Shown piece by piece: positions 11,834-30,036 of a stretch of 59,817 bases of DNA. A program made the position numbers and the translations under genes. This DNA is from a virus. Taxonomy: Duplodnaviria > Caudoviricetes. Location of the stretch: positions 1 through 59,817 of IMG/VR virus record IMGVR_UViG_3300012663_000543. One strand, written 5' to 3'. Position 1 is the first letter of the stretch, and every line of letters begins with the position of its first letter. A model generated the notes under the pieces. It was not told where the DNA came from and did no database searches. It was given only the letters and a program-made list of their open reading frames with translations.

Positions 11834-12123
11834 TGTTCGAAGCTTCCATAGCCCTGCCCACAGAACTGGTGTCGGTCAGGACGACGAGCAATCGCGGCCT
11901 GTCGGTAGAGGAGCTTGCTGACCGCTGCGCTGAACGGATCGTAAGCGTGTCCAAGGACGCGCATCCGGCCATTCGTGACCAAGCGCTTGCCTTCAGGGCG
12001 CAGATCGTTGTCCTGCTGTCAAAGTACCTCAAAGAAGCGGTTACAAATGACCGCGTTACCGTGTACAATGCGCTGGTAGACGCGGGCCATCCCCAATTGG
12101 CTGACGCCATTCGCAAACTATAG
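11833..12123 (+). CDS. Hypothetical protein
   Basis: Translationally coupled ORF in tail module. Confidence 0.7.
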   Translation: MFEASIALPTELVSVRTTSNRGLSVEELADRCAERIVSVSKDAHPAIRDQALAFRAQIVVLLSKYLKEAVTNDRVTVYNALVDAGHPQLADAIRKL

Positions 12124-12132
12124 GAGGCTCTT

Positions 12133-12576
12133 TTGGCAATCACACAAGCAATGTGCACTTCGTTCAAGGACCAGATCCTTGAAGCGGTCCACGACTTTCG
12201 CACCTCTGGCGGGGATGTCTTCAAACTTGCGCTCTACTCTAGCGCCGCGACGCTAGACGCAACCACCACGGCCTATACCTCGAGCAACGAAGTTGCAAAC
12301 TCGGGCACGTATGCTGCGGGCGGCGGGTCGCTGACCAACATCAGCCCGACCACTACAGGCACGACAGCGTTCACCGACTTTGACGACATCTCCTTCACGT
12401 CGGCCACAATCAACGCCCGAGGCGCTCTGATCTATAACTCGACCCCGACCCACACCTACACCAACCCCTCGGTTGTGGTGCTGGACTTTGGCGGCGATAA
12501 GATTTCGACGTCAGGCACGTTCACCATTCAGTTTCCAACGGCTGACGCCTCCAACGCCATCATCCGCATTTCTTAA
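12133..12576 (+). CDS. Tail structural protein (TTG start)
   Basis: SD GGAGG; AMCTSFK, FKLALY, LDFGGDK. Confidence 0.7.
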   Translation: MAITQAMCTSFKDQILEAVHDFRTSGGDVFKLALYSSAATLDATTTAYTSSNEVANSGTYAAGGGSLTNISPTTTGTTAFTDFDDISFTSATINARGALIYNSTPTHTYTNPSVVVLDFGGDKISTSGTFTIQFPTADASNAIIRIS

Positions 12577-12585
12577 GGAACGACC

Positions 12586-14853: not shown

Positions 14854-14854
14854 T

Positions 14855-15418
14855 ATGTCACGCATCACCCTCGCCCCCAACGCATCCGGCACTGGAACGC
14901 TCACCATAGCGGCTCCTAACACCAACACGGACCGCACGATCACGCTGCCCGATGTGACCACCACGCTGGTTGGCACTGACGCCACGCAGACGCTGACTAA
15001 TAAGACGATTGCATCAAGCCAGCTTACGGGTGCGCTTCCTGCTATTGATGGGTCGGCTTTGACTGGCTTGCCTGTCCCAGCCCAACTTTCAACAGCTTCT
15101 GGGTCTGCTCCATCTTACTCAGCCCGTGCTTGGGTGAACTTCAACGGCACTGGCACTGTGGCCATCCGCGCCTCTGGAAACGTCACAAGCATCACGGACA
15201 ATGGGACGGGCGATTACACTGTTAACTTTACGACAGCAATGTCTGACGCAAACTATGCTGTAACTTGCTCAGCCACAGGTGTTGCAGGAGTTTCAGGAAC
15301 AAACTTGACTGCTGGCCCCGTCCAATCAACACAGGCAGTTGGATCAATAAAAGTTACGGTTAGGAACCCTAGTTCGACAACTGACGCAGATATCGTCTGC
15401 GTAGCCATTTTCCGCTGA
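14855..15418 (+). CDS. Tail fibre/receptor-binding subunit
   Basis: TLVGTDATQTLTNKTI; RAWVNFNG...NVTSITDNGTGDYTVNF. Confidence 0.75.
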   Translation: MSRITLAPNASGTGTLTIAAPNTNTDRTITLPDVTTTLVGTDATQTLTNKTIASSQLTGALPAIDGSALTGLPVPAQLSTASGSAPSYSARAWVNFNGTGTVAIRASGNVTSITDNGTGDYTVNFTTAMSDANYAVTCSATGVAGVSGTNLTAGPVQSTQAVGSIKVTVRNPSSTTDADIVCVAIFR

Positions 15419-15427
15419 GAGGAACCC

Positions 15428-15649
15428 ATGCAAGTCATCATCTTTCCCAACGACAATGGCGGCGTAGCGGTTATCATCCCAGCCCCTGAGTTTGCCGACC
15501 AGATCGAAGCTGTAGCCAACAAAGACGTGCCTGCGGGTAAGTTTTGGCGCATCATGGACGATAGCACTTTGCCCTCGCGTGACAGTCGGGACCGCTGGCT
15601 TTGGACCGAAGAAGGCCCGCTTGACATAGCTCCAAAGGAGGCCAACTAA
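15428..15649 (+). CDS. Putative tail fibre assembly chaperone
   Basis: Small ORF after a fibre gene; KDVPAG...LPSRDSRDRW. Confidence 0.55.
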   Translation: MQVIIFPNDNGGVAVIIPAPEFADQIEAVANKDVPAGKFWRIMDDSTLPSRDSRDRWLWTEEGPLDIAPKEAN

Positions 15650-16464
15650 TGTCCATTACCCTTGACGGCACGAACGGGATTACCGCATCTAATCCTGCAA
15701 CAGTGAAAGCTAATGCTTTTTTAGATGCGGCTGGTGGGAATACTGCTACGATCAATGGGGCTGTTCCCGCACCCCTTGCATCTCCTGCGCTGACAGGTGT
15801 GCCTACTGCGCCAACAGCGACTGTTGGCACGAACACGACCCAGATCGCAACCACTGCTTTTGCATTGGCTAACTCTGGCATTTCTAACGTCAACATCCAA
15901 GTCTTTACCGCAACTGGAACCTACACTCCGACTTCTGGTTACAAATGGGGGATTGCTTTTGTTACTGGTGGTGGCGGTGGAACACGCGGCATTGGCACGA
16001 CTGACGATGCGCGCGGTGGAGCTGGTGGGGGCGGAACAGCAATCGGGCTTTTAAACTTAACAACGCTTGGGTCAGTAACTGCGACTGTGGGTGCTGGTGG
16101 AACGGCAGGGGCGGGCAGTGGCACAACTGGGGCCAACGGCACAAGCGCGGGAGCATCTACGTTATCAACCTTAACAGGCGGCGCGGGGTTTAGCGTGCAA
16201 AGTGCATCTTCTAGTGGAGAACCAGGCGGAACCGCAACTGGAGGGATTTTAAACATTTCTGGCGGCGCGGGTGGATGGAGCGTTATTAATGCAAGCACTC
16301 CTATGTATAGTTATGGCAGCGGCGGTGCATCTTTTTACGGAAGCACTGGAGGCAACAATAGCGCAACTGTTTATGGCGCAGGCGGCGGGGGCCAAGCAAC
16401 CACAGGCACAACTGCTGGAACGTCTGGAATGCAAGGCGTCATTATGATCTTGGAGTTCAAATAA
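15649..16464 (+). CDS. Glycine-rich tail fibre subunit
   Basis: APLASPALTGVPTAPT...TTQIATTAF; VFTATGTYTP; GGGGG domain. Confidence 0.75.
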   Translation: MSITLDGTNGITASNPATVKANAFLDAAGGNTATINGAVPAPLASPALTGVPTAPTATVGTNTTQIATTAFALANSGISNVNIQVFTATGTYTPTSGYKWGIAFVTGGGGGTRGIGTTDDARGGAGGGGTAIGLLNLTTLGSVTATVGAGGTAGAGSGTTGANGTSAGASTLSTLTGGAGFSVQSASSSGEPGGTATGGILNISGGAGGWSVINASTPMYSYGSGGASFYGSTGGNNSATVYGAGGGGQATTGTTAGTSGMQGVIMILEFK

Positions 16465-16790
16465 TGAACATCGTTGAAATCAAAGACGGCATCGTCGCAA
16501 ATATCATTGTTGTCGATCCCAACAACATCCCAGACTTCTGCGCTGATTGGCCTGAAGCCGCCGAAGGTTGCTATATCGGCGGCAGCTATGTGGATGGCGT
16601 GTTCATCCCGTTGCCTGAGCCTGAACCTGAGCCACCAACCCGCGAAGAGCAAGAAGCTAAACGTGCAAAAGCTTATCGCACTGAAGCTGATCCTCTCTTC
16701 TTCATGGCCCAGCGAGGCAAGGCTACACAACAACAATGGCTCGACAAGATCGCTGAAATCGAAGCCCGCTTCCCGTATCCAGAGGTATAA
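16464..16790 (+). CDS. Putative tail fibre assembly chaperone
   Basis: C-terminal AYRTEADPLFF...IEARFPYP. Confidence 0.6.
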   Translation: MNIVEIKDGIVANIIVVDPNNIPDFCADWPEAAEGCYIGGSYVDGVFIPLPEPEPEPPTREEQEAKRAKAYRTEADPLFFMAQRGKATQQQWLDKIAEIEARFPYPEV

Positions 16791-16792
16791 CC

Positions 16793-17698
16793 ATGTCCAC
16801 GATCAAAGCAGACTACCTCGTAAACGCCGCTGGCACAGGTGCGCCTACGCTGACCAATGGGGCCGTGCTTCCTGCGGGTAGCGCCGCCGCACCAGCCATC
16901 TCGCCTACAGGCGACACCAACACGGGTATCTTCTTTCCTGCCGCTGACACCATTGCCTTCTCTGAAGGCGGCGCAGAAGCCATGCGTATCGACGCCTCTG
17001 GCAACGTGGGGATTGGTGGAACATCTGGGGGTGCGAAGCTTGACGTTGTAGCCACTGGAAGCGGCACTGCCGCACAGTTTTCCGGCGGCGGCACATACCA
17101 AGGATTTGCCGTAAAAAACAACCAATCAAGCGCCTCTGTCTATGGAGGAACTTACTTTGATGCCCGCAATGAACTTGACGCTGCTGTTGCTAATTTTTTA
17201 GCGGACATCAACACTGATGGTTCTTCTGCTTGGTCATGGTCAACGCAAGTTGCAGGAACAAGAACTGACCGCCGTGTTGAACGTATGCGTATCGGTTCAT
17301 CGGGCCAAATCGGCATCGGCGGCGCAAACTACGGCACATCTGGTCAAGTTCTCACCTCTGGCGGCTCAGGTGCAGCGCCTTCTTGGGCTGCTGCCGCTGG
17401 TGTGCCAACAACTGTAGGCTCGGTTGGCTCTCTTGCATTTCTGTCATCTCTTTCAAACGTCACCCAAAATACTGACTATGCGGGTTCTGGGCTTTATTGG
17501 GCATCTGCTATTGCTTATTTTTTCGGAAGTCATCGGTGGGAAGATGCCACGACTTTTTCAACAGTAAGCACAGGCCCCTCAAGTCTTGGGTCCCCTTCTG
17601 GAACATGGCGGGCGCTTGGCTCTAGCAGCAGTTATGGCACTGGTGGACCAACGTCAAAAACCATATATGGCGCAACACTCTTTTTGAGGATTTCGTGA
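16793..17698 (+). CDS. Tail fibre subunit
   Basis: GDTNTGIFFPAADTIAF, EAMRIDASGNVGIG, YGTSGQVLTSGG, SGTWRALG. Confidence 0.75.
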   Translation: MSTIKADYLVNAAGTGAPTLTNGAVLPAGSAAAPAISPTGDTNTGIFFPAADTIAFSEGGAEAMRIDASGNVGIGGTSGGAKLDVVATGSGTAAQFSGGGTYQGFAVKNNQSSASVYGGTYFDARNELDAAVANFLADINTDGSSAWSWSTQVAGTRTDRRVERMRIGSSGQIGIGGANYGTSGQVLTSGGSGAAPSWAAAAGVPTTVGSVGSLAFLSSLSNVTQNTDYAGSGLYWASAIAYFFGSHRWEDATTFSTVSTGPSSLGSPSGTWRALGSSSSYGTGGPTSKTIYGATLFLRIS

Positions 17699-18051
17699 TG
17701 GAATATCGCAACGCAAAATACCTCGACGCCATTCGCATTGACTGCGAGATTAATCATCCGACTTATGGCTGGATACCATTTACCTGTGATCCTGCCGATA
17801 TTGGGGCGGCTTTTGATATTGTTGCGCTGTATGATGCAATGAGTGCTGACCCCAGCACAGCACCATATGTTTATGTGCCGCCCGCACCACCCGCACCGCC
17901 CACGTTTGAGCAGCAATCAGACCTTCGTGCCGCAGCCTATGCCAAGGAAGCCGACCCACTGTTCTTCAAGGCACAGCGCGGAGAAGCAACGATGGACGAG
18001 TGGCTTGCCCTAGTCGCAGAGATAAAAATGCGGTATCCTTACCCAACCTGA
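17698..18051 (+). CDS. Putative tail fibre assembly chaperone
   Basis: IDCEINHPTYGWIPFT; C-terminus paralogous to 16464..16790. Confidence 0.6.
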   Translation: MEYRNAKYLDAIRIDCEINHPTYGWIPFTCDPADIGAAFDIVALYDAMSADPSTAPYVYVPPAPPAPPTFEQQSDLRAAAYAKEADPLFFKAQRGEATMDEWLALVAEIKMRYPYPT

Positions 18052-18071
18052 CCCAGTAAAGGAGGGGCGAA

Positions 18072-18896
18072 ATGTTTGGTTTTAGTCCCTTCTCAGCCTC
18101 CCCGTTCTCGGCGGTAGGAAAGGCAAACGACGTTGTCGTAGGTGTTGTTGGCGTATCTGCATCAGGCAGCGTTGGCTCCGTCGTTGCGCCCGCCGCCGCT
18201 ATCCTTACAGGCGTATCAGCCACCGCAGATGTCGGCTCCGTTACCGTTACGGCCTCGGCCCTTGTGCTTGTGTCCGGCCTATCGGCTTCAGCAAGTGTCG
18301 GCTCTGTCACCGTTCAAGCAAACGCTGACGTCGCTGTTTCCGGCCTATCGGCCACTGCTAGTGTCGGCTCTGTCACCACCACGGCCTCGGCCCTCGTCCA
18401 ACCTACGGGTGTTTCCGCCACGGGCGCTGTTGGTTCTGTCACTGTTACGGCCTCGGCCCTTGTGCAGCCCACGGGTGTTTCCGCCACAGGCGCTGTTGGC
18501 ACTGTCGCCGTTGTTGGCTCGGCCCTTGTCCTTCCGACAGGTGTTTCCGCCACAGGCGCAGTTGGCACGGTCACAGTACAGGCCAATGCCGTCGTTGCCG
18601 TATCCGGCGTCTCCGCTTCTGGCTCTGTTGGTTCCGTAACTGTTACTGGCTCCGCTGTCGTCATACCGCTGGGCGTTTCCGCCACGGGCCGCGTGGGCTC
18701 GGTCATCGTTTGGGGCCAGATTGTACCACAGCCCGGAACCGCTTGGGATGCCATCAGCCCCGTGCCACCCACTTCTTGGAGCGCAATCTCCCCCGCTGCA
18801 GGTTCATCGTGGACTGAGGTCGATCCAGATGCTATAAATACGTGGACAGAGGTGGGGCCAACCCCGGCCACCATCTGGACAAACATCGCGGCGTGA
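18072..18896 (+). CDS. Repeat-rich structural protein (~19-aa beta repeats)
   Basis: MFGFSPFSASPFS start; repeated VxPTGVSATGAVGSVTVTA. Confidence 0.75.
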   Translation: MFGFSPFSASPFSAVGKANDVVVGVVGVSASGSVGSVVAPAAAILTGVSATADVGSVTVTASALVLVSGLSASASVGSVTVQANADVAVSGLSATASVGSVTTTASALVQPTGVSATGAVGSVTVTASALVQPTGVSATGAVGTVAVVGSALVLPTGVSATGAVGTVTVQANAVVAVSGVSASGSVGSVTVTGSAVVIPLGVSATGRVGSVIVWGQIVPQPGTAWDAISPVPPTSWSAISPAAGSSWTEVDPDAINTWTEVGPTPATIWTNIAA

Positions 18897-18905
18897 GGAT
18901 GACCA

Positions 18906-19766
18906 ATGCCAAGTACGTACACAAATAACGGTGGCCTAGAACTCCCCGGTGATGGTGAACAGTCGGGCGATTGGGGCGACACCGTCAACACCAACATGCA
19001 GATCCTCGATGCCATAACAAATGGGCAGGTCACTCTGTCCTTGTCCGGCACGTCCTCGACCCTGACTACCTCCAACGCTCCGACCTTATCTGACGGGCAA
19101 AATGCCCTGATCGTCCTTGGCGGAAGCCCAAGCGGGACGCACACGATCACGGTTGCCCCCAACGACGCGGAGAAGATCTACTTTGTGTACAACACCACGG
19201 CCCAGAGCGTGATCTTTACACAAGGTTCTGGTGGCAACGTAACCGTAGCCACAGGCGACAGTGCAATTATCTACGCCAATGGCGGTGGGGCATCTGCGGC
19301 AGTCGCCAACCTGACCGACCACTTTGCTATGAGCAGTGTAAAGATCACGGGCGGCAGCATCTCCGGCGCTTCCGTATCCACATCCTCGGCAACCATAACT
19401 GGCGGCAGCATCACGGGCATTACCGACCTAGCTGTTGCTGATGGCGGAACTGGGGCATCCACTGCCGCACAAGCCCTTATAAACTTTGGCCTTACAGCAA
19501 CCGCGACGGAGCTAAACTACGTAGACGGCGTCACGTCTGCCATCCAAACGCAGATGGATTTGAAGGCTCCTTTGGCGAGCCCGACCCTTACCACTCCAAC
19601 CACGACAGGAACTGTCACCATCAATGGTGGCACACAAAGTTGGACCGTGGTTCCAAGCGGTACAAACCTGACCTTTGCATACAACGGCGTCAACAAGATG
19701 CGGCTTGATAGCAGCGGCAACATTACGGTCACAGGCAACGTCACAGCTTACGGGACGATCACCTAA
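18906..19766 (+). CDS. Tail fibre/baseplate-associated protein
   Basis: GEQSGDWGDTVNTN; GGSITGITDLAVADGGTGAS; GNVTAYG C-terminus. Confidence 0.75.
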   Translation: MPSTYTNNGGLELPGDGEQSGDWGDTVNTNMQILDAITNGQVTLSLSGTSSTLTTSNAPTLSDGQNALIVLGGSPSGTHTITVAPNDAEKIYFVYNTTAQSVIFTQGSGGNVTVATGDSAIIYANGGGASAAVANLTDHFAMSSVKITGGSISGASVSTSSATITGGSITGITDLAVADGGTGASTAAQALINFGLTATATELNYVDGVTSAIQTQMDLKAPLASPTLTTPTTTGTVTINGGTQSWTVVPSGTNLTFAYNGVNKMRLDSSGNITVTGNVTAYGTIT

Positions 19767-20491
19767 TGGCTATCCCAGCGTCAGGACAAGTAACACTTTC
19801 TGACCTGCAAATTGAGTATGGTGGCACAGACCCCATCTCGATAAACGAGTACTATCGCGGTGGTGCATATGTTCCTGTTGGCGCTGGCACAGCCACTATC
19901 CCGGCGAGTGGGGCTATTACCCTTGAGAACTTCAGGGGGACGTCGAAGACAGCAACAGTGACGTATACGCTTCTTGGAGGCGGCGGCGGCGGCGGCTATG
20001 GCGCTGATAATAAAGAACCCGGTCGTGGGTCTTACGCCCCTTCTGGTGGCTCTTCTACCATATCAGCGGCGGGTATTCAGACAATCACCGCCGCTGGCGG
20101 CGCTGGCGGTGAGAACTGTGGCGGTGGTCGCGGTACTAGTGGTACGGCTGGCGCATCGTCCGCATTTGGCACTGGTGGCTACGGCGGGTCATTGAACAGT
20201 TCTGGCGGCTCCGCAAGTGGCTATGGCGCTGCTGGCGGCGGCGGCGGCGGGGATGCTGGTTCCACATATGACGAAGGCGGCGCTTCGGGCTTTGGTGGCT
20301 CCGCCGGAACGTACCTCACTGGAACGGTCCAGATTGTCTACGGCACTACGGTTACCATCGGCCTTGGTGCGGGTGGTACGGGTTCGCCCAGTGGATATAG
20401 TGGCGGAAACGGCTCTCCGGGTCGTTGCCAGATTTCATGGGATGGGAACTCAACCACGTTCACGTCTAACGGCACTGTAGTGATAACCTAA
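19766..20491 (+). CDS. Glycine-rich fibre tip protein
   Basis: IPASGQVTLSDLQIEYGG...ISINEYYRGG; Gly-rich body. Confidence 0.7.
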   Translation: MAIPASGQVTLSDLQIEYGGTDPISINEYYRGGAYVPVGAGTATIPASGAITLENFRGTSKTATVTYTLLGGGGGGGYGADNKEPGRGSYAPSGGSSTISAAGIQTITAAGGAGGENCGGGRGTSGTAGASSAFGTGGYGGSLNSSGGSASGYGAAGGGGGGDAGSTYDEGGASGFGGSAGTYLTGTVQIVYGTTVTIGLGAGGTGSPSGYSGGNGSPGRCQISWDGNSTTFTSNGTVVIT

Positions 20492-20503
20492 GAGGCTTAA
20501 GTC

Positions 20504-21058
20504 GTGTCAGTAGGAACCACTCTATCCCACCTCCACAAGTCCACAGCGGAACTGTCTGCGGATATTCTGGAGGACATTGGTGAGATCATCTACAGTGTGC
20601 GTGACGGGGAATTCTCCGTGTGCGTGGTGGCATCAAGACTCAAAACACTGAAAAAGATTATTGGAAAAGTGCCGGATCTCGTTCAATCGGCGGTTACGAA
20701 AAGATATGCCGTTGACCTGCAAAGCATCGGAACTGACATCCTTCGTCTGTACACAGACGGATCCGATCCGGGAGTAGTTATCAATGGGTATTACTTCGAC
20801 CCATCCCTCAAGATGCTTCAGAAAAAAACCTACAAAAAGGTGAAGCCGGGGGAACTGGCGGTGGACAGGTACAACAGTGACGGCGTCCTTGTTTCCCCTG
20901 ACGAGCCAGAAAAGCAGGGAGACTTCTCCTGTTGGCTTGGGGACAAAGACTTTGCTGCCCGTGTTGAGCAGGAAGCAAGTGCCCACGGACATGCAGTGCG
21001 GTACACTTACAAACAGGAGAAGCCGCAGAGCTATCTTCGAGTGATGAGGATGCTATGA
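20504..21058 (+). CDS. Hypothetical protein
   Basis: GTG-start ORF following fibre tip gene. Confidence 0.55.
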   Translation: MSVGTTLSHLHKSTAELSADILEDIGEIIYSVRDGEFSVCVVASRLKTLKKIIGKVPDLVQSAVTKRYAVDLQSIGTDILRLYTDGSDPGVVINGYYFDPSLKMLQKKTYKKVKPGELAVDRYNSDGVLVSPDEPEKQGDFSCWLGDKDFAARVEQEASAHGHAVRYTYKQEKPQSYLRVMRML

Positions 21059-21297
21059 CCCCTGAGATGATCTGGAACTTGATTCTCACTGGTGGCCTTG
21101 GCCTTGTTGGCGCTGTTGTGCGTTATGCATTTGCTGAGATCCAACGCCTTCAAATCCTATTGAACCGCACCCGTGAAGAGCTTGCTAAGGAATATGTCAC
21201 CAAGGCAGAGGTTCATGCCGACATCAACCGTGTCATCACTCGCATCGACAACCTTGATGCTAAGATTGAGAGACTCCTAGACAAACTGGTGAAGTGA
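21055..21297 (+). CDS. Small membrane protein (TM plus coiled coil)
   Basis: N-terminal TM; LLNRTREELAKEYVTK. Confidence 0.7.
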   Translation: MTPEMIWNLILTGGLGLVGAVVRYAFAEIQRLQILLNRTREELAKEYVTKAEVHADINRVITRIDNLDAKIERLLDKLVK

Positions 21298-21890
21298 AAA
21301 TGAAGATAGACAGAGACAAAGTCATAGTCATTCTGATCCTTGTTTCTGGCTTTCTCCTAGCCGCTGCTATGGCGCATTCTCAATCAGTTCCAGATGTGCA
21401 ATGCCCAGAGGGCTATATTTGCACATGGTCTGGTTCAGACGGGTCAGTCACTACAAATGGCGAGATGACCACAACAGTGATCTCTCCACCGCCCACGGCT
21501 GTGTCGCCGCAATTTAGTGCTGGAAACGGCAACGATCTCTGCACTGTGGGTGTGTCAGGGGCCGTGCAGACCCAGATTTTGGGCCTAAGCGCGGGCAAGA
21601 CAGTCCGCGATATGAACTGTGAAAGGCTCAAGAACGCCAAGGCCTTGTACGATATGGGGATGAAGGTCGCCGCCGTCTCCACGATGTGCCAAGATGAGCG
21701 CGTCTTTCAGTCCATGCTCGATGCTGGCACACCCTGCCCATACGATGGTATGATAGGGGAAGAAGCCAAGGCTGCGTGGGAAGCTGACCCTGATCGCGCC
21801 GGAGGCACATCTAAGGGGCGCATCGATGAGAAAACAAAATTTGGCATTGGCGCTCTGCTTGGCGTCTTGGGCCTCCTTATCGCACTCTGA
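21294..21890 (+). CDS. Exported Cys-rich protein with C-terminal membrane anchor
   Basis: Signal-peptide-like N-terminus, six Cys, hydrophobic C-terminus FGIGALLGVLGLLIAL. Confidence 0.75.
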   Translation: MKMKIDRDKVIVILILVSGFLLAAAMAHSQSVPDVQCPEGYICTWSGSDGSVTTNGEMTTTVISPPPTAVSPQFSAGNGNDLCTVGVSGAVQTQILGLSAGKTVRDMNCERLKNAKALYDMGMKVAAVSTMCQDERVFQSMLDAGTPCPYDGMIGEEAKAAWEADPDRAGGTSKGRIDEKTKFGIGALLGVLGLLIAL

Positions 21891-22695
21891 ACCCTTTACT
21901 TACGGCGCAACAGATAACGCAGCTTCTGGCGGGCTTTCGTGGGACATGAGCAATGTCGTGCCCACGGTCCCCGGTCTTGATATCACTGGCGTCTTTTATA
22001 GGTACAGCATAGACAAGGACCCCGCTTCAAGCGCCTTGGTCCATGTGCAAAATGAAAACGCCCTAAGCAGCGGGTACATCTTTCGCGAGACGGACAACTG
22101 GTCGGGGCTTGCTGGGAACACCATCACAAAGGGCATCCCTGTGCAGAGTGTTCCGCTTAGGTACTGGGGCCTTGGGTCTATTGAAGTTGAAGGCGACGGA
22201 ACTATCTCGGACGCATCTGTTGTATACTCCTATCGTGTCAACCAATGCGCAGACCCGCAGTCAAATCCGTCCTGCGATGGCTATGAACCCCTAGTTCCGT
22301 CTATAACCTTCGAAGAGACGGAAACATACGACGCCTTGGAAGATGACGCCTATAGGATTGCCAGCCAGAAAACTGATCAAGAGTATCAAGAGGATACAGG
22401 ATCGACCGAAGAGCAGAGCGACGACAAGGAGCGGAAGGCAAGGCTTGAGCGCGGGTTGGCCGCATCAAAAAACGCCCTAGCGCTAGCCAACGGCATTTCT
22501 CAGGATGCTATTATCTCCTCAATGGGGTATACTTCTGACATGTCCGTTTACTATGCTGCGCAAATAGACGGGGGAGCCTATGCGGACGTGCCAATGCTGG
22601 TTGACGGGAAGCTTCCTGAGAACAGGCGTGGGTTGAGGAACGGCCTAGCGCAGCAGGTGCTGCACGAAAAGATGATAGACCTGCAATACCAGTAG
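21826..22695 (+). CDS. Exported protein
   Basis: Signal peptide (SHS/EP); beta-rich N-half, CADPQSNPSC motif, acidic linker. Confidence 0.75.
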   Translation: MRKQNLALALCLASWASLSHSEPFTYGATDNAASGGLSWDMSNVVPTVPGLDITGVFYRYSIDKDPASSALVHVQNENALSSGYIFRETDNWSGLAGNTITKGIPVQSVPLRYWGLGSIEVEGDGTISDASVVYSYRVNQCADPQSNPSCDGYEPLVPSITFEETETYDALEDDAYRIASQKTDQEYQEDTGSTEEQSDDKERKARLERGLAASKNALALANGISQDAIISSMGYTSDMSVYYAAQIDGGAYADVPMLVDGKLPENRRGLRNGLAQQVLHEKMIDLQYQ

Positions 22696-22706
22696 AGGGT
22701 GTTCAA

Positions 22707-23201
22707 ATGAAATATCTCGTAGTTGCTGCCCTGATCGCACTGCCCCACATGGCACTGGCAGAAGGTGTCCAGATCGAAGGCACTGTTCAGGCTAAGTGCG
22801 TCATCCGCACAGATCGCACTGGCGTCTATGGCAACCCAACAGCCAGTAAGCTTAGTGCGCTCCCCGCCGATGGTGGGGTGACCCCAATTGTCCGGTATGA
22901 CGTTGCCCTTGCTGGTTACTATGTCGCCCGCATCACGCACCCAACTTCGTTTTCTACAAGCCCCACCCTGACAGACACTGTCACGTGGACGGGCGGGGCA
23001 TCCGTGTCGAGCGTTTCTGCGGCGGGGATGTCTGCCTATGACGCAGCAAAAGTTGAGTATGATGCCACCACGGAGTTCGATCTGAGCGTCTCTGGCACAA
23101 CGTGGTTCAAGGTCGATAGCACTGCTGAGTATGGCTATGACAAGGCTTTCCCTGCAGGGACGTACCGCTCCGTAATCCAAGCGGACTGCATTGCAAAATG
23201 A
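22707..23201 (+). CDS. Exported pilin/fimbrial-subunit-like protein
   Basis: Signal peptide ALA/E; IEGTVQAKC N-terminal strand; PAGTYRSVIQADC C-terminal strand. Confidence 0.55.
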   Translation: MKYLVVAALIALPHMALAEGVQIEGTVQAKCVIRTDRTGVYGNPTASKLSALPADGGVTPIVRYDVALAGYYVARITHPTSFSTSPTLTDTVTWTGGASVSSVSAAGMSAYDAAKVEYDATTEFDLSVSGTTWFKVDSTAEYGYDKAFPAGTYRSVIQADCIAK

Positions 23202-23578
23202 AGTTGGCTATAACACTGACCCTGCTTGGAACGGCTGCTGGGGCGCATGAGATGACGCCAGCGTACCCAGAACTGCATCCATCTTCTGTGCCGCAGATCA
23301 TGCAAGCCGACCTATCCATCTTCAACGCCCGCGATGATGTCGAGTACTACTCCGTCAGCGTCTTGGATGGGAAAATGAACCCCGTTGCCTTTGCTTCGAC
23401 GCAGCGCGTCATGCATGTTTTGCCGGGAAGCAGGAAAGACTTTGAGATCTATGTAAGGGAAGCAGACGTAGAACGTGTTGTCTACGTCTGCACAACCTCG
23501 ATGCTTCGTGCGGGGCAAGAGGATAACGCCATCATTTCGTCGCGCATCTGTTCGAGGTTGGACGGGGAAAAAGCATGA
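23198..23578 (+). CDS. Exported Ig-fold protein, possibly pilus-chaperone-like
   Basis: Signal peptide AGA/H; MTP start, LSIFN, VLPGSRKDFEIYV; two C-terminal Cys. Confidence 0.5.
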   Translation: MKLAITLTLLGTAAGAHEMTPAYPELHPSSVPQIMQADLSIFNARDDVEYYSVSVLDGKMNPVAFASTQRVMHVLPGSRKDFEIYVREADVERVVYVCTTSMLRAGQEDNAIISSRICSRLDGEKA

Positions 23579-23979
23579 AGCGGCTGGCTACCATCTTGGT
23601 TCTGGTGGGCGGAACAGCGCAAGCCGACAGCACATCTTTGGCGCTGCAGCTTCCAACTGCGCCAATGACATACCAGAGCGACAGCTTCAGGGCTGGTGAA
23701 CTTGACTGCAGCATGGCGATAGGGGGCAGTACCAACCTTGAGCTTGGAGTTCTTGGCGGTATCAACAACGTAGGCGGAACCGACCTTCTGCCACAGACAA
23801 AGGATATCGGTCTGTTTGCACGGATTGTGATCCCGCTCAACGCACCAAAGTCTAGGATCGACTGCACCCAGCTATACCTTTTGGAACTGCAGCAACGCAG
23901 GTTGGAAATAGAGCAGCTAAACGCGGAACTTGAAGCCATGAAGCGGCTTCAAGACGAACAGTTGAACTTTGAGCCATGA
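23575..23979 (+). CDS. Exported protein with C-terminal coiled coil
   Basis: Signal peptide AQA/D; two Cys; ARIVIPL; heptad-repeat tail. Confidence 0.7.
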   Translation: MKRLATILVLVGGTAQADSTSLALQLPTAPMTYQSDSFRAGELDCSMAIGGSTNLELGVLGGINNVGGTDLLPQTKDIGLFARIVIPLNAPKSRIDCTQLYLLELQQRRLEIEQLNAELEAMKRLQDEQLNFEP

Positions 23980-24476
23980 CAGAAAGCCGGGACCTTGGGG
24001 AAGTGCTTGAAGAGGTTGAGGGCCTAAAGGACAAGGCCTTCACGATCTTTGGCCTTCGGATGACGCCAGCGACCATCGCTGCCACTGTCGCGTTTTTGTC
24101 CACTATCTGCGGTACGTTATACGGCGGGTTCGTCATGTACCAAAAGGTCGAAGAGGTCGCATCCATGGACCTTGGGGCCTACCAACAGCAGATGGAGGTC
24201 ATGGACGCCAAGGTCCAAGAAGCGCTGGACTACGCCCGTGATATCAAGAATGGCCTCAAGGACGACATCATGAGGCTTGAAAAACAGGTGGATAGAGCAG
24301 AAGATGCGGTTCGAAATAACGAAGAAAAAGTCAGGACCTTGATCGATGATGCTGAAAAGCGCTTCGAGACAAGACGGGACCAACTTCGCATGTCGCAAGA
24401 TCAGGACATGAAGGAACTAGAAGACCGGATAAATGGCCGACTGCAGCGGGCGCTTGATAACCCGCTTGCCCAATAG
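23976..24476 (+). CDS. Membrane-anchored coiled-coil protein
   Basis: One TM, long coiled coil, ALDNPLA C-terminus. Confidence 0.7.
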   Translation: MTESRDLGEVLEEVEGLKDKAFTIFGLRMTPATIAATVAFLSTICGTLYGGFVMYQKVEEVASMDLGAYQQQMEVMDAKVQEALDYARDIKNGLKDDIMRLEKQVDRAEDAVRNNEEKVRTLIDDAEKRFETRRDQLRMSQDQDMKELEDRINGRLQRALDNPLAQ

Positions 24477-24487
24477 AGGACGATGGT

Positions 24488-24676
24488 ATGAAAGAGAAAC
24501 TGCTCTGGCTGGTCCTCCTCGCCGCTCTGGCTGCGGTCTTCTATATATCGGGCGATGGACGCTATCGCTATCCGTGCCAAGACCCAGCCAACTGGGCTAA
24601 CCCAGAATGCCAGCCGCCAATCTGTACGGCAACAAAGCAATGCCCCGAAGACCTGCTAGGAGGACCAAATGGGTAA
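24488..24676 (+). CDS. Small Cys-rich membrane/exported peptide
   Basis: Hydrophobic N-terminus; YRYPCQDPANW..PECQPPICTATKQCP. Confidence 0.7.
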   Translation: MKEKLLWLVLLAALAAVFYISGDGRYRYPCQDPANWANPECQPPICTATKQCPEDLLGGPNG

Positions 24677-24935
24677 GAATGATCCTGACGTACTGGAAGG
24701 CCGTCTGCGGTACTTTGTCGGCGTTGTGCTGACCTGTGTGCTAGCTGCGACAATCCTTGTCGTGCTGTACTCGTTGGTCTTTGTGACCCAGCCAATGGGG
24801 GACAGCAGCGAGAACGACAAGCAGTTCTTTGCTCTGCTGACAAGCATCAGCACCTTTATCCTTGGCGCTCTTGGCGGCGTCATGGCTGCAGGAAACAATC
24901 GTAACAAGTCTCAAAATGAGAAGGATCCAGAATGA
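24669..24935 (+). CDS. Two-TM protein, holin candidate
   Basis: Two TM helices, charged C-terminus, upstream of endolysin. Confidence 0.55.
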   Translation: MGKNDPDVLEGRLRYFVGVVLTCVLAATILVVLYSLVFVTQPMGDSSENDKQFFALLTSISTFILGALGGVMAAGNNRNKSQNEKDPE

Positions 24936-25156
24936 TTGGTCGTTTGGTAGGCGCTCTGATTGGGCGCAAGGTCAAGGAAAAGATCGCTGACGCAGTGCTG
25001 GACAAGGTCGACCTGCCGCCCGCAGTTGAAGGCCTGATCAAGACCGCTGTAACGGGTAACGCAGGGGATCTGCTTTCCAACCTCGCTGGCACGGCAGGGG
25101 CGGATAAGGACTCTGTCCTTGGTGCTGTCGTCAAGAAGGCAGGGAAGAAGACATGA
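24932..25156 (+). CDS. Small lysis-module protein
   Basis: Coupled ORF with amphipathic N-terminus. Confidence 0.6.
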   Translation: MIGRLVGALIGRKVKEKIADAVLDKVDLPPAVEGLIKTAVTGNAGDLLSNLAGTAGADKDSVLGAVVKKAGKKT

Positions 25157-25989
25157 CACTGACCAAAGAGAAGATCATCCACATCCTACACGGCAACGCT
25201 GACGCCGCTGCGTGGGCCGACGCCGCGCTGGAAATCCTGCCGAAGTACGAGATCAACACACCAAACCGCATTGCTGGCTTCTTTGCTCAGTGCGGTCATG
25301 AGTCGATGAACTTCACGGCCTTGTCGGAGAACCTGAACTACCGCGCTGAAACCTTGGAGAAGTTGTTCTCCAAGTATTTCTCGAAGGCGGGGCGCAACGC
25401 TGCCGATTATGCCAAGCAACCGGAGAAGATTGCCAACGTGATCTATGCTAACCGCATGGGCAATGGTGACACTGCGTCTGGGGAGGGCTATCTGTTCCGT
25501 GGACGTGGCGTCATCCAATTGACGGGCAAGGACAATTACAGTGCCTTTGCGTTGTCTATCAAGATGACGCTGCCGGATGTCATTGACTACGTTCAGACCA
25601 AGAAGGGCGCACTTGAGTCCGCTTGCTGGTACTGGAACAGCCGTAAACTCAACAGTGCCTGTGACGAAAACGACATCGTCAAGATGACCAAGCTGGTCAA
25701 TGGTGGGACAATCGGCCTTGAAGATCGCCGCAAGCATTACGAGCAAGCACTCGCTGTCCTCGGTGGCGCTGTCCCTGCGCCTATTACCAACGCCGCAGCC
25801 ATTCCCGGTGTCCTGAAAAAAGGTTCTACGGGCGAAGCGGTCAAGCGGATGCAAGCTGAGTTAGGCCTTGAGGACGATGGTGTGTTTGGTCCGGGGACCG
25901 AGGCCGCAGTCAAGAAGTGGCAAGCAGCCAATGGTCTTGCCGTTGATGGCATCGTTGGACCAAAGACATTGGCGAAGCTACTCAACTGA
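25153..25989 (+). CDS. Endolysin (GH19 chitinase-like plus C-terminal peptidoglycan-binding domain)
   Basis: AQCGHES, FRGRGVIQLTGKDNY, VNGG; LKKGSTGEAVKRMQ...DGIVGPKT. Confidence 0.92.
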   Translation: MTLTKEKIIHILHGNADAAAWADAALEILPKYEINTPNRIAGFFAQCGHESMNFTALSENLNYRAETLEKLFSKYFSKAGRNAADYAKQPEKIANVIYANRMGNGDTASGEGYLFRGRGVIQLTGKDNYSAFALSIKMTLPDVIDYVQTKKGALESACWYWNSRKLNSACDENDIVKMTKLVNGGTIGLEDRRKHYEQALAVLGGAVPAPITNAAAIPGVLKKGSTGEAVKRMQAELGLEDDGVFGPGTEAAVKKWQAANGLAVDGIVGPKTLAKLLN

Positions 25990-26018
25990 TGTAGTATCTC
26001 CGGAAGTAGGAGACAGTC

Positions 26019-27878
26019 ATGGCGCTTATCAAACTCCAGTTCCGCCCCGGGATCAACCGGGAAACTACCGCGTATGCCAATGAGGGCGGCTGGTACGATT
26101 GTAACCTAGTCCGGTTTCGCTTTGGAAAGCCCGAAACAATAGGAGGGTGGACACCGTACTCTGCCCTCTCGTTCCTCGGAACGACGCGCTCCATCATGCC
26201 TTGGACGGCCCTAGACGGGACCACGTACATGGGCATGGGGACAAACCTCAAATACTACGTTGTTCGAGGTAACACGTTCTACGACATCACCCCGCTACGG
26301 CTTCCTAACGCAACGCTCACGAACCCCTTCCAAACCCAAGCCGCTGGGTCCGGAGTCCTGATTGTTACGGATGTTGCCCATGGCTGTTACGCCGGAGACT
26401 TTGTTACGTTCTCTGGGGCAACTGCCGTAAGCGGTATTACGACAGGGCAAATAAACAAAGAGCATCAGGTTCTCGCAATCCTGACCACGGATACTTATAC
26501 GGTAAACACGGGCGGTTCTGCTGCAGCCGGAGGTGTAACTGGTGGTGGCACAGTCACGGCGTCTTACCAAATCAACACGGGTCTGGATACGTCTGTGTAC
26601 GGCACGGGCTGGGGAGCAGGTGTTTGGGGTGGATCTGGATGGGGATCGCCTTCGACAACCACTATCCCCGGCACACAGTTGCGCGTCTGGAGCCAAGACA
26701 ACTTCGGCGAAGACCTGTTGATGGCTGTGCATGACGGCGGTCTGTACTATTGGGACACCTCGGCAGGGCTTTCTACCCGTGCGGTGACGCTAGCCTCCTT
26801 GGCTGGGGCAAACAGTACACCGACTGTTGTCAAACAGGTCATCGTGTCTGAACGCGATAGGCACACAATCGTCTTTGGTTGCGACCCAGAGTCCACTCCG
26901 GGAGTCCAAGACCCGCTGGTCATACGGTTCTCGAGCCAAGAAAGCCTGACCGATTGGGAGACCCGCGCAGACAACACCGCAGGGGAATTGCGCCTTGGTT
27001 CGGGGTCCGAGATCATTGGCGCTGTGCAAACCAAACAGCAAGTCGTGGTCTTCACCGACGTGTCTATCCACGCGATGCAGTACATCGGCCCGCCCTACAC
27101 CTTTGGCGTTCAAGAGATTTCTTCTGGCGTCTCGATCATGGGGCCTAATGCCATGGTGGCGGTGGGCGACGTGGTCTTCTGGATGGGCAAGGGCGAGTTC
27201 TACGTCTACAGCGGTAGCGTTGCTCAGATCCCCTGCAACGTAAAAGAGTACATCTTCGGCACTCTGAACATCAATCAAGCCTTGAAGATCAACGCTGGAC
27301 ACAACAGCTCTTACTCGGAGGTGTGGTGGTTCTACCCGTCGACAGGTAGCGCTGAGAACGACAGCTATGTGGTCTATAACTACGACCAGCAGATCTGGTA
27401 CTACGGCTCAATGCCTCGAACTGCTTGGGTTGACCGAGGTGTGTTGGGGTACCCCCTAGCAGCGAGCGCGGATAGTTATTTGTATTATCAAGAGTCTGGC
27501 TTCAACGACGGATCGAACAACCCACCAACGGCTCTGAGTCCGTACATCGAGTCGAGCGTCATAGACATTGGCGAGGGCGACCAGTTTATGTTTGCCACTC
27601 GGGTCATTCCCGACCTGACGTTCAGGAACTCCACGGCGGCAAATCCGTCAGCCACCTTCACGATCAAGGCCCGCAACTTCCCCGGAGACAATTTCATCTC
27701 CTCGGATGCAAATGCAGTGACAAAGACGGCCAGCGTTCCTGTTGAGCAATTTACGGATCAGGTCTTCATCCGTATGCGCGGGCGGTCCATGTCCATTCGG
27801 GTTGAGTCCAACCAAACAAATACGTCGTGGCGTCTGGGCGATCCAAGGCTCGATGTCCGAACTGACGGGAGACGCTGA
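26019..27878 (+). CDS. Tail nozzle/DNA stabilization protein (P22 gp10-like)
   Basis: 619-aa beta-propeller-like protein; GINRETT, VWWFYPS, YVVYNY, DGRR C-terminus. Confidence 0.75.
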   Translation: MALIKLQFRPGINRETTAYANEGGWYDCNLVRFRFGKPETIGGWTPYSALSFLGTTRSIMPWTALDGTTYMGMGTNLKYYVVRGNTFYDITPLRLPNATLTNPFQTQAAGSGVLIVTDVAHGCYAGDFVTFSGATAVSGITTGQINKEHQVLAILTTDTYTVNTGGSAAAGGVTGGGTVTASYQINTGLDTSVYGTGWGAGVWGGSGWGSPSTTTIPGTQLRVWSQDNFGEDLLMAVHDGGLYYWDTSAGLSTRAVTLASLAGANSTPTVVKQVIVSERDRHTIVFGCDPESTPGVQDPLVIRFSSQESLTDWETRADNTAGELRLGSGSEIIGAVQTKQQVVVFTDVSIHAMQYIGPPYTFGVQEISSGVSIMGPNAMVAVGDVVFWMGKGEFYVYSGSVAQIPCNVKEYIFGTLNINQALKINAGHNSSYSEVWWFYPSTGSAENDSYVVYNYDQQIWYYGSMPRTAWVDRGVLGYPLAASADSYLYYQESGFNDGSNNPPTALSPYIESSVIDIGEGDQFMFATRVIPDLTFRNSTAANPSATFTIKARNFPGDNFISSDANAVTKTASVPVEQFTDQVFIRMRGRSMSIRVESNQTNTSWRLGDPRLDVRTDGRR

Positions 27879-28129
27879 TGGGAACTAACAGCCCAGTACC
27901 ATACTTTCCGACGCCCCCAAATGCGTACAGCCAAGACTACCTGAACCAAGTTGTTCGGGCTTTCTCGACGTTCATCCAACAGACGAACAACCCCGGAGAG
28001 GCCGTATTCTCAACTCTTCGGATGCTGCGTCTGCAAACCTACGCCAACAACGCCGCTGCCCTTGCGGGCGGTCTGGCTGTGAACGACATCTATAAGACCT
28101 CCACCGGGGAAATAAGGATCGTGGTCTAA
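27878..28129 (+). CDS. Small tail (needle/plug-like) protein
   Basis: Directly follows nozzle gene; YANNAAALAGGL. Confidence 0.55.
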   Translation: MGTNSPVPYFPTPPNAYSQDYLNQVVRAFSTFIQQTNNPGEAVFSTLRMLRLQTYANNAAALAGGLAVNDIYKTSTGEIRIVV

Positions 28130-28192
28130 TGATCCCTTGTTCCATTGACGTGGTTTTGTTAAGATGCCCCCAGAAAACACGGTGGTGACCAC

Positions 28193-28960
28193 ATGAGCCT
28201 TTTCTCAACCCTCGGAAGCATTGTAGGTTTTGTGGCTGGGGGCCCCGGCGGGGCGGCTCTTGGGTCTGGCCTTGGGACCCTTCTTGGTGGCGGCACTGTA
28301 AAAGAAGCCGTGTCAAGCGGCATCGGAACTTTGATGACGGGCGGACTTGGTGGTCGGGCGGGGATTATCGGTGACGTACTGGGCGGTGGGCAAACGTCCA
28401 TGGCCGCTGGCAACGCCGTATCCAATATGTTCTCTGGCGGTGGTGGTGGTCAGGGCGGGCAAGGATTTAACCCCTTGGCGTCTCTGATGGGTGGCGCTGG
28501 CGGTCAGGGGCAAAGCCCGACTGCAGTGCAGGGTCAAGGCGGTATGCCGGGGCAAGGAAATCAAGGCGGTCTTGGGGGCTTGCTCAAGGCATTTGACAAC
28601 CCGCTCATGATGTCGATCCTCCTAAAGGCTACGGAGCCCAAGGAAGTGAAGCTGACGTCTCCTGAAGAGCAGCGTCGTCTGGACACAGGGGAGCGTAACC
28701 CTGATTACGCCGGAACTCCGGCCTTTGACTACCGCTACGGCTATGCCCGTGGTGGCGAGATCCAAGGTCCGGGGACCGGGACCAGCGATTCGGTACGCGC
28801 CCGTATCTTCCAAAACGGTCAGCCTGTACGTGAAGCCCGTCTTTCGGATGGTGAGTTTGTGATGACCAACCGCGCCGTGCGCGGGGCAGGAAATGGCGAC
28901 CGCAGCAAGGGTGCTGCAGAGATGTATCGTATGATGCATCAGTTCGAGCGGAGAGCATAA
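28193..28960 (+). CDS. Ejection/DNA-transfer protein
   Basis: Gly-zipper N-terminus; YARGGEIQGPGTGTSDS...LSDGEFV. Confidence 0.7.
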   Translation: MSLFSTLGSIVGFVAGGPGGAALGSGLGTLLGGGTVKEAVSSGIGTLMTGGLGGRAGIIGDVLGGGQTSMAAGNAVSNMFSGGGGGQGGQGFNPLASLMGGAGGQGQSPTAVQGQGGMPGQGNQGGLGGLLKAFDNPLMMSILLKATEPKEVKLTSPEEQRRLDTGERNPDYAGTPAFDYRYGYARGGEIQGPGTGTSDSVRARIFQNGQPVREARLSDGEFVMTNRAVRGAGNGDRSKGAAEMYRMMHQFERRA

Positions 28961-30036
28961 TGGCCGATCAAACAGTTCGCCAAGAGTCCGTATCTCTTCT
29001 TCCCGACTATCAGGAAAACTACCTAAAGGACCTCCTGTCCAACATATATCGGGTCGACCCAAAAACTGGTAAGCCAGCGGGCATTGCCGCCGTATCGCCA
29101 CTGTATGGTCAGCCTGTCCTCGATGCGAGCGGGAAGCCTGTCTATGAGACGGATGCCCAAGGCAATCCGCGCCTAGACGTCCGTGGTCAGCCCATTCCGA
29201 AAGTCACTGGCGGCGTTCCAAAAGCCGACATCATGCCTTTCACGGAGGCCCAGAACAAGGCCATCCAGATGGGCATTCAAGGCATTGGTGCATATGCTCC
29301 TATGCTCGAGACGGGGAAAAACACAATAGCTCAAGGGGTTGCCACGCTTGGCGGCACGTCGGGGGCTTATGACCCGAACTCCTACAAGTCTTTCTACGAC
29401 CCCTTCGTCGAGGACGTGATCAACACCACTCAGGCCGACATCGCACGTCAGGGTGAGATCAATCGCAACCAGATCAATGCCAATGCCGTAGGGGCCGGGG
29501 CCTTTGGTGGTTCGCGCCAAGCCGTTGCCGAGCAAGAGAATGCTCGTAACGTCGGCTCTGAGATGGCCCGCACTGGGGCACAGTTGCGCTCCGCCGCCTA
29601 CACGGGTGCACAGCAGCAAGCCCAGAACGTCTTCGAGAACCAGATGAACCGTGGTCAGTCCGCAGCCCAACTGTTCCAAGGCCTTGGCACGGCGCAAGCC
29701 GCTCTTGGCGAGTCGGCACAGGCGGCGGCTGGTCGCGACGTCAACGCCCTGTTCAACTTGGGCTCCTTGGAGCAAGGCCAGCAACAGTCCGAGTACGACG
29801 TGCAGCGGGCCAACGCCATCGAGTCGGCATACGAACCCTTCCAGCGGTTCTCCTACATGTCCGATATCCTGCGCGGCGTTCCATCCACACAGCAAACTCT
29901 GGGCATCTCGAGCGTCCCGACGCCCAGCCCTGTGTCCTCGATCCTTGGTACTGCTCAAGGCCTTGGCGCGTATCAAAGCCAGTATGGAAATGGTCAGGGG
30001 ATGCTTGGCTCTCTCTTGAATCCCAGTGGGAGGTAA
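28960..30036 (+). CDS. Ejection/DNA-transfer protein
   Basis: Gln/Ala-rich; FYDPFVEDVI, AGAFGGSRQAV. Confidence 0.7.
   Translation: MADQTVRQESVSLLPDYQENYLKDLLSNIYRVDPKTGKPAGIAAVSPLYGQPVLDASGKPVYETDAQGNPRLDVRGQPIPKVTGGVPKADIMPFTEAQNKAIQMGIQGIGAYAPMLETGKNTIAQGVATLGGTSGAYDPNSYKSFYDPFVEDVINTTQADIARQGEINRNQINANAVGAGAFGGSRQAVAEQENARNVGSEMARTGAQLRSAAYTGAQQQAQNVFENQMNRGQSAAQLFQGLGTAQAALGESAQAAAGRDVNALFNLGSLEQGQQQSEYDVQRANAIESAYEPFQRFSYMSDILRGVPSTQQTLGISSVPTPSPVSSILGTAQGLGAYQSQYGNGQGMLGSLLNPSGR

Follow-up and report, generated by a model that had tools for sequence, protein, structure and literature searches.

Donor-strand complementation in the chaperone-usher pathway is marked by the last strand of the chaperone lying parallel to the C-terminal strand of the subunit that it holds, a pairing to which the first strand also contributes in FGL chaperones. 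Here we describe a cassette of six genes, gA to gF, at 21294-24476 of the IMG/VR virus record IMGVR_UViG_3300012663_000543 (the window, that is, the whole stretch of 59,817 bp that was analysed, which is a complete phage genome). The chaperone-usher pathway (for example, SafB-SafA, Caf1M-Caf1 and DraB, of the FGL type) is its nearest mechanistic relative, although the two-domain chaperone, the usher and membership of the known sequence families are lacking. The likeness lies in gD, which is predicted to have the fold of domain 1 of such a chaperone, in gC, a predicted beta-sandwich whose best Foldseek matches are chaperone-usher pilins, in the export signals that all components appear to carry, and in a modelled pairing of the first and last strands of gD with the first and last strands of gC, the last pair being parallel. 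In contrast to the known pathway, the cassette has no usher, gD consists of one domain rather than two, neither Pfam membership nor a profile match to a chaperone or pilin of the PDB was found, four conserved extra partners (gA, gB, gE and gF) have no chaperone-usher counterpart, the cassette occurs on phage-like DNA only, and a disulfide joins the first and last strands of gC. We conclude that gA-gF form a real, widespread and phage-specific envelope module, and that its most likely site of action would be the periplasm late in infection.

Multigene sets of exported proteins have been described in marine phages. Wittmers et al. (2022, PMC9599517) report pelagiphage curli modules (type VIII secretion system) that comprise CsgG, CsgF and CsgA/B together with FecR, a histidine kinase and an adenylate cyclase, that are syntenic in marine podo- and myoviruses, abundant in ocean viromes and traced to Alphaproteobacteria, that have moved between phage families, and that are proposed to alter host aggregation or adhesion. 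The present cassette is likewise a multigene exported set in marine phages, but the curli genes are of recognisable cellular origin whereas the gC family was not found in cellular genomes, and none of the six cassette proteins matched a Csg or curlin family of Pfam at E<=0.1. gF in turn resembles the inner-membrane component (i-spanin) of two-component spanins in its architecture (an N-terminal transmembrane segment, a variable periplasmic coiled coil and a conserved C-terminus) and in lying just upstream of holin-like and endolysin genes, but it has no match to a spanin family of PHROG, and two loci (L058 and L059) hold a separate Rz-like spanin. An outer-membrane partner (o-spanin) with a lipobox was found neither within gF nor within 700 nucleotides after it in 23 of 24 loci, the candidate in the remaining locus (L028) being dubious, and the window has no plausible o-spanin candidate and no spanin family match. 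The MSP/VAP (FFAT-binding) domains differ from gD in being eukaryotic and cytosolic, the predicted partner of gD being the edge strands of a folded subunit; no sequence relation between gD and these domains was found.

The comparison with donor-strand complexes is carried by the predicted docking of gC and gD. When mature gC and mature gD were co-folded, each with its own alignment, three runs gave interface scores (ipSAE) of 0.84, 0.80 and 0.79, whereas none of three controls exceeded 0.00, and the geometry was donor-strand-like, which bears out a test proposed in a preliminary description of this DNA that had been made from the letters alone. Of 157 solved complexes, 116 attain the ipSAE mark applied, as do 2 of 215 mismatched pairs; these rates are rough here, since the alignments supplied were our own. 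At least 96% of the contacts are common to the runs, and the partners have a predicted local distance difference test score (pLDDT) of at least 87. In the predicted interface, gC residues 28-35 and 152-164 lie against gD residues 17-23 and 107-120; gD 107-120 runs parallel to gC 152-164, as expected of edge-strand donation by a chaperone, with gC 156-163 in register with gD 113-120 as parallel strands, and gC 32-33 contacts both gD 17-18 and gD 115/117. The invariant R45 of gD falls within the predicted gC interface, and the N-terminal extension of gC lies outside the predicted gD interface. What the co-fold demonstrates is a likeness to donor-strand complexes; the binding of gC by gD is itself a prediction of the model.

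gD was modelled as one domain (pLDDT 87.1), and we assign it a PapD-like fold of the MSP type because the structures retrieved by Foldseek from the PDB (20 matches at E<=0.001) are nearly all chaperone-usher chaperones, that is, PapD (9e-5) followed by FimC, SfaE, DraB and SafB, with FaeE, Caf1M and CsuC slightly above E 0.001. The modelled fold is that of the first of a chaperone's two domains only: a chaperone with two immunoglobulin-like (Ig) domains has about 200-250 amino acids, gD has 126 in a single-domain model, and its family, drawn from 1.84 billion proteins at E<=0.001, has 180 representatives at 50% identity, none of the 150 listed being longer than 181 amino acids. A gD profile of 25 sequences found no PDB chaperone at E<=10. 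gC was modelled (pLDDT 88.4, with low confidence over the signal peptide and the start of the mature chain) as an adhesin- or pilin-like beta-sandwich in which a disulfide ties the first strand to the last. Its first Foldseek matches are chaperone-usher pilins (CfaB, the pilin domain of PapG, FimG, FimF, CS17, Caf1 and CupE), but these are weak (best E 1.7e-3, template-modelling score about 0.4), and ranking by VIA Z puts no such pilin in the top 50. The preliminary description had likened gC to pilins and gD to PapD-like proteins by eye, from motifs that are indeed present ('EGTVQAKC' and 'FPAGTYRS' in gC; 'HEMTPAYPE', 'LSIFNAR' and 'LPGSRKDFEIY' in gD); the PapD-like part of that likeness holds at the level of predicted structure, whereas gD is half a chaperone and the pilin match of gC is weak.

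Export to the envelope is suggested by the N-termini and cysteines of gA-gE. A crude, self-written signal-peptide rule (K/R, a 9-residue hydrophobic core and small residues at -3 and -1) flags 8 of the 88 open reading frames (ORFs) of the window, four of which are gA, gB, gC and gD, and misses the window's own gE; among homologues, it flags gA in 23/23, gB in 24/24, gC in 23/24, gD in 23/24 and gE in 24/24. Cysteines that are invariant or nearly so across 24-25 homologues are C83, C109, C132 and C148 of gA, C141 and C150 of gB, C31 and C161 of gC, C98 and C118 of gD, and C45 and C97 of gE, and such pairs would fit folding in an oxidising periplasm. From these features and the membrane segments we infer that the products of gA-gF reach the envelope of a Gram-negative host, as exported or as anchored proteins. 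The preliminary description had placed six ORFs here, five with signal peptides and paired cysteines, the first with a C-terminal membrane anchor, followed by a sixth with a transmembrane segment and a coiled coil; all six lie on the + strand where it had put them, the N-termini and cysteine pairs are conserved across homologues by the crude rule and the alignments, gA has a hydrophobic tail at residues 181-198, and gF is hydrophobic at 31-48 and then heptad-rich.

In the alignments, gA has 46 invariant columns, its four cysteines among them (alignment A4), and in gB the N-terminal domain is joined by a variable, acidic linker to a C-terminal motif, 'GLRNGLAQQ..H....QY', that is conserved (alignment A3). 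A short N-terminal extension precedes C31 in gC, with alternating V/I and invariant G25 and V27; C45, C97 and P27 are invariant in gE (alignment A5), and Q157, D161, N162, P163 and L164 in gF (alignment A6), which ends in a C-terminal 'LDNPL' and whose heptad-rich coiled coil varies widely in length among homologues. gA matches phrog_20531 (E 2.6e-12) and gE phrog_37374 (E 1.7e-9). Pfam yielded no match of use for gA-gF and none at E<=0.1 for gD, gB had no match in Pfam or PHROG, and no lipobox was found in gA-gE. Profile searches of the PDB with gA-gE gave nothing (best E-values 0.19-1.1, the 0.19 of gB being not significant), single-sequence PDB searches with gC and gD gave nothing significant, BFVD held 0 matches to gC at E<=0.001, and the ESM Atlas had no structure for gA or gB, its matches being unnamed viral clusters only; longer, fused versions of gC were sought without success, which is weak evidence. 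The six families do not appear to be paralogues, hhalign giving a probability of at most 31% between any two, with matches limited to the N-terminal signal-peptide regions. A copper 'histidine brace' at the invariant N-terminal His of gD was rejected, the homologue in Vibrio phage Brizo having no such His and a second invariant His being absent, and cell-wall linkage of gE in the manner of Lpp is not favoured, a conserved C-terminal Lys not being seen in the alignment.

The six genes are inherited together. Scans of IMG/VR with gC and gE yielded 58 loci on 49 distinct contigs, which were compared by tblastn with all window proteins; the order gA-gB-gC-gD-gE-gF is kept in 58 of 58, with genes missing only at contig ends, although identities of the cassette proteins fall to 30-60%, and gG-gI and the endolysin, further 3', are found only in closer relatives. 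Pairwise distances of the six families correlate (r = 0.65-0.86), and in none of the 15 pairs is the observed value reached by any of 999 permutations, a correlation between sequences that shows shared history, physical interaction not being implied by it alone. The co-conservation that the preliminary description had named as a check is thus strict, and the genes co-diverge. In one locus, a homing-endonuclease-like gene (phrog_452, E 4.8e-29) lies between gE and gF (L041 7285-7746), and in another, two additional ORFs do so (L057 6414-7129).

The carriers have podo-, sipho- and T4-like backbones, on contigs of up to 219 kb, and their locus flanks hold a T4-type DNA polymerase (L028), thymidylate synthase, 2OG-Fe(II) oxygenase, radical-SAM and ribonucleotide reductase genes or, elsewhere, sipho-type small and large terminase genes with portal, podovirus genes and tail fibres. 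The closest GenBank record, uncultured phage MW202675 (73% identity over 24% of query 20500-26000), keeps in position g0, a gA-like gene, gG-gI and the endolysin, but not gB-gF, in place of which stands an unannotated 249-amino-acid signal-peptide ORF (L001 1654-2403); it also encodes a 143-amino-acid transmembrane and coiled-coil protein ending in 'RNPMQ'. The differing backbones and this replacement of gB-gF point to a cassette that is modular and horizontally mobile. A lipobox ORF of 71 amino acids precedes the gA-like gene of MW202675 (L001 886-1101).

At E<=0.001, the gC family comprises 3602 clusters (90% identity) and the gA family at least 8000, with no Pfam domain in any of the 120 gA matches listed; the listed members of the gA, gC and gD families are unnamed or 'hypothetical protein', none with a Pfam domain. 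Among prokaryotes (one genome per species, 185,579 species), gC occurs at 10 loci, all on contigs of metagenome-assembled genomes whose labels conflict (Pseudomonadales, a Rhodobacteraceae bin, Aquiluna, Saprospiraceae, Melainabacteria and an archaeon) and which we read as mis-binned phage contigs; the gC family is restricted to phage DNA. The gA domain was found in 13 GenBank phage records, mostly of Pelagibacter and Roseobacter phages (among them Pelagibacter phages HTVC023P, HTVC202P, HTVC115P, HTVC033P, Mosig and Baldr; Roseobacter phages CRP-207 and CRP-810; and also Ralstonia phage RSP15). A tblastn search of 50,697 GenBank phage records with gC, gD and gE of the window and a diverged gC (L039) gave no match. 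The diverged gE homologue of the same locus, used as the query, found 176 Vibrio phage records, of which Brizo (Demerecviridae) was the one inspected: three consecutive ORFs there match the profiles of gC (hhalign 92%, E 6e-7), gD (95%, 3e-8) and gE (98.5%, 1.7e-15). The gD-like (L074 4133-4540) and gE-like (4456-4833) ORFs of Brizo disagree with the annotated gp139 and gp140, and the annotation is probably wrong. This trio, together with the gA-like and gF-like genes of pelagiphages, indicates that gC-gD-gE is a separable core and that gA with a gF-like protein is a separable frame, which the cassette of the window would join. Pelagiphage gp46 and gp25 were considered as fusions of gB-gE, which the comparison did not support (hhalign probabilities at most 1.4%). 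A literature search that covered articles without their supplements found no description of the cassette.

Table 1 Coordinates of the cassette genes and their neighbours in the window.
Feature	Position	Strand	Description
Tail-fibre-like genes	12586-20491		5' of the cassette
g0	21055..21297	+	80 amino acids; N-terminal transmembrane segment (hydrophobic 8-23), coiled coil; phrog_462, E 1.1e-9
gA	21294..21890	+	198 amino acids; putative signal peptide, Thr/Ser-rich stretch, 'SPPP..SP', 4-Cys domain, C-terminal anchor
gB	21826..22695	+	289 amino acids; putative signal peptide, ~130-amino-acid conserved N-terminal domain, C-x8-C loop
gC	22707..23201	+	164 amino acids; putative exported beta-sandwich subunit, best conserved of the six
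gD	23198..23578	+	126 amino acids; putative exported single-domain PapD-like (MSP-type) Ig protein
gE	23575..23979	+	134 amino acids; putative signal peptide, mature N-terminus 'SSSLNLxLP', Cys pair, variable loop, C-terminal coiled coil
gF	23976..24476	+	166 amino acids; short cytoplasmic N-terminus, one transmembrane segment (31-48), periplasmic coiled coil (predicted)
gG	24488..24676	+	62 amino acids; N-terminal hydrophobic segment, Pro-rich tail with 4 Cys
gH	24669..24935	+	88 amino acids; hydrophobic segments 13-44 and 53-74; phrog_25359, E 7.2e-12
gI	24932..25156	+	74 amino acids; between gH and endolysin; 65% identical in MW202675
Endolysin	25153..25989	+	GH19-like catalytic and peptidoglycan-binding domains; phrog_181, E 1.8e-73

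In the window, the cassette lies between the tail fibres and the lysis genes (Table 1), as the preliminary description had it, within a single co-directional block that runs from 20504 through the cassette to the holin-like gene and the endolysin. Since virion genes resume 3' of the endolysin at 26019 (phrog_3287), with ejection proteins also downstream, the cassette is embedded in the structural module. The six genes are co-directional and overlapping, with 4-nucleotide stop/start overlaps at g0/gA, gC/gD, gD/gE and gE/gF, an 11-nucleotide gap between gB and gC, and a 65-nucleotide overlap of gA and gB (21826-21890) in different frames, in which the hydrophobic tail of gA lies over the signal peptide of gB; a gA/gB overlap of like length recurs in diverged loci (for example, L002, L020 and L025). 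The word TATAAATA, which we take to be a T4 late promoter, occurs at most 102 nucleotides upstream of gA in 12 of 23 loci, these upstream stretches, about 2% of the DNA, containing 13 of the 25 + strand copies; on this basis, and from its place in the co-directional block of the window, the cassette is probably expressed late. A promoter and terminator scan of 12000-29000 of the window found sites no more numerous than in shuffled sequence.

The association with lysis genes recurs beyond the window. The order gF-gG-gH-gI-endolysin is shared by the window and its close relatives, and among other loci an endolysin-family gene lies 72 nucleotides 3' of gF in L041, two genes after gF in L018, and within about 1.5 kb in L037 and L039. 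In Pelagibacter phage HTVC023P, the gA-like gp45 is followed by gp46, gp47, gp48 (a transmembrane and coiled-coil protein ending in 'SDNPLAQ') and the peptidase M15 gene gp49, an exported protein of 461 amino acids being encoded among the genes between; in Roseobacter phage CRP-810, a lysozyme gene lies two genes past the gA-like gene, and the module of MW202481 is likewise near lysis genes. Brizo encodes a protein of 854 amino acids, then the gC-, gD- and gE-like ORFs, a lipobox ORF, the annotated holin and a peptidase M15. In L020 (7762-8118), L023 (7784-8113) and L025 (4777-5094), the gene after gF encodes 105-118 amino acids that include hydrophobic segments and, in the N-terminal part, an acidic 'DxDGDG'-like sequence; these proteins may be holins, albeit without a family match. 

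We suggest, tentatively and with a rough probability of 0.45, that gA-gF build a late periplasmic assembly, without an usher, whose action falls at the end of infection, that is, in envelope breakdown, its timing or virion release. Its core would be gC-gD-gE, in which gC is a disulfide-stapled beta-sandwich subunit, gD (one PapD-like domain) holds gC by edge-strand pairing as in donor-strand complementation, and gE, with its disulfide, strand-like N-terminus and coiled-coil tail, is the likely acceptor or anchor for gC. The inner-membrane anchors of gA (C-terminal) and gF (N-terminal) would frame this core, gF contributing a long coiled coil and an invariant C-terminal peptide, and gB would be an additional exported component. 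A usher (about 800 amino acids) was found by neither Pfam nor PHROG in the cassette, its flanks, the rest of the genome or the flanks of diverged loci, the largest cassette ORF has 289 amino acids, and the window has no usher family or other large outer-membrane protein, in agreement with the preliminary description; as no usher or recognisable outer-membrane pore is present, the assembly would most likely be periplasmic rather than a surface pilus. Action at the end of infection is suggested because the module and its sub-modules repeatedly stand directly upstream of holin and endolysin genes. A bolder version, which we hold to be doubtful, is that gC forms an usher-independent periplasmic polymer by donor-strand exchange, and so represents a new class of phage egress or envelope-breaching machinery: gD would prime gC, the strand-like N-terminus of gE or the extension of gC would displace gD, and gA and gF would tie the structure to the inner membrane.

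Several observations weigh against a periplasmic assembly that acts at lysis. No endolysin-family gene is present in the fetched DNA of roughly half of the diverged loci examined (L020, L023, L025, L027, L028, L029, L030, L035, L036 and L057), and the passing of the co-fold may be partly due to the model's memory of solved chaperone-subunit complexes. The fold matches of gC to pilins are faint. An Rz-like spanin (phrog_739) lies 2.2-2.5 kb downstream in both L058 (E 1e-13), where a lipobox ORF also overlaps it, and L059 (6e-12), which weakens the idea of the cassette as a spanin substitute; because these loci carry a spanin too, the cassette is not simply one. The module moreover adjoins tail-fibre or receptor-binding genes just as much, which would equally suit exported proteins that inactivate the receptor or block DNA entry, and thus exclude superinfection, mask receptors or protect progeny. 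The gene for Llp of phage T5 adjoins that of the receptor-binding protein, and here the cassette directly follows tail-fibre genes in the window and CRP-810 and the 854-amino-acid protein in Brizo; small lipobox ORFs stand after gE in Brizo and before the gA-like gene in MW202675, and late expression would suit the shielding of progeny from cell debris. We nevertheless regard receptor masking as unlikely, if a serious contender, given that gC is 52-91% identical across unrelated backbones with presumably different receptors, which is unexpected of a receptor-specific mask, that gA-gE are without a lipobox, and that the exclusion proteins known to us are single small proteins rather than six-gene sets.

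The subunit- and chaperone-like folds of gC and gD and their predicted docking could also serve a fimbria-like surface fibre or adhesin that passes through an unrecognised pore (an oligomer of gE or gB) or a host usher and alters aggregation or adhesion. Such a fibre could draw on the free N-terminal extension of gC, with its alternating hydrophobic residues and invariant Gly, and multigene fibre-secretion modules that moved between phage families provide a precedent (PMC9599517); but no usher, CsgG or secretin family was matched, no cassette ORF exceeds 289 amino acids, and the module would be made late, shortly before cell destruction, so that we consider a surface fibre distinctly unlikely. 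Least probable is that the six are ordinary virion or assembly proteins (tail-fibre accessories or chaperones) whose hydrophobic N-termini are not export signals. The block does sit inside the structural module, with fibres upstream and phrog_3287 and ejection proteins downstream, but five families keep signal-peptide-like N-termini and invariant Cys pairs over deep divergence, gA and gF carry membrane anchors, and in other phages the same cassette stands among replication and metabolic genes.

The cassette families are very abundant and present in phages of Pelagibacter, Roseobacter and Vibrio, which are key marine hosts. If the docking of gC and gD is real, the donor-strand mechanism would exist in a stripped-down, usher-less form, either as a phage invention or as an ancient acquisition; a role in lysis or release, if the periplasmic module has one, would help to explain how many aquatic phages without recognisable spanins handle the outer membrane; and if gC does polymerise, such machinery would be found in a large share of marine and freshwater phages, including those without a recognisable spanin. 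The function is directly testable, because culturable Vibrio phages carry the three-gene core beside holin and endolysin genes.

Among the neighbours of the cassette, g0 is a flanking gene that is retained also in relatives without gB-gF (68% identical in MW202675, with a homologous stretch in CRP-810 gp54). gG is kept in close relatives only (61% identical in MW202675, and 3' of gF in L002, L003, L006 and L012); its size and composition recall an o-spanin, but a lipobox is lacking. gH is a holin-like candidate by topology and position, and gI had no match in Pfam or PHROG. The endolysin matches PG_binding_1 (E 5.1e-17) and, at 22.9 bits, falls under the 25.5-bit cut-off of Glyco_hydro_19. Elsewhere in the window lie genes for a large terminase, a portal and a major head protein, for tail-fibre-like, internal virion and ejection proteins, and for a family-A DNA polymerase, helicases and a primase. 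An ORF of the tail-fibre region (18072-18896) consists mostly of repeats of a 'VSATGAVGSVTVTASALV'-like unit and has no PHROG match. A second protein with a lytic domain, a transglycosylase or internal virion protein with an endolysin domain (phrog_669, E 1.2e-29), is encoded at 57993-58673, a small MazG-like pyrophosphohydrolase (phrog_2252/phrog_801) at 37369-37704 beside the DNA polymerase, and a GroES-like co-chaperonin (phrog_3188, E 4.7e-14) at 5314-5805 in the head module.

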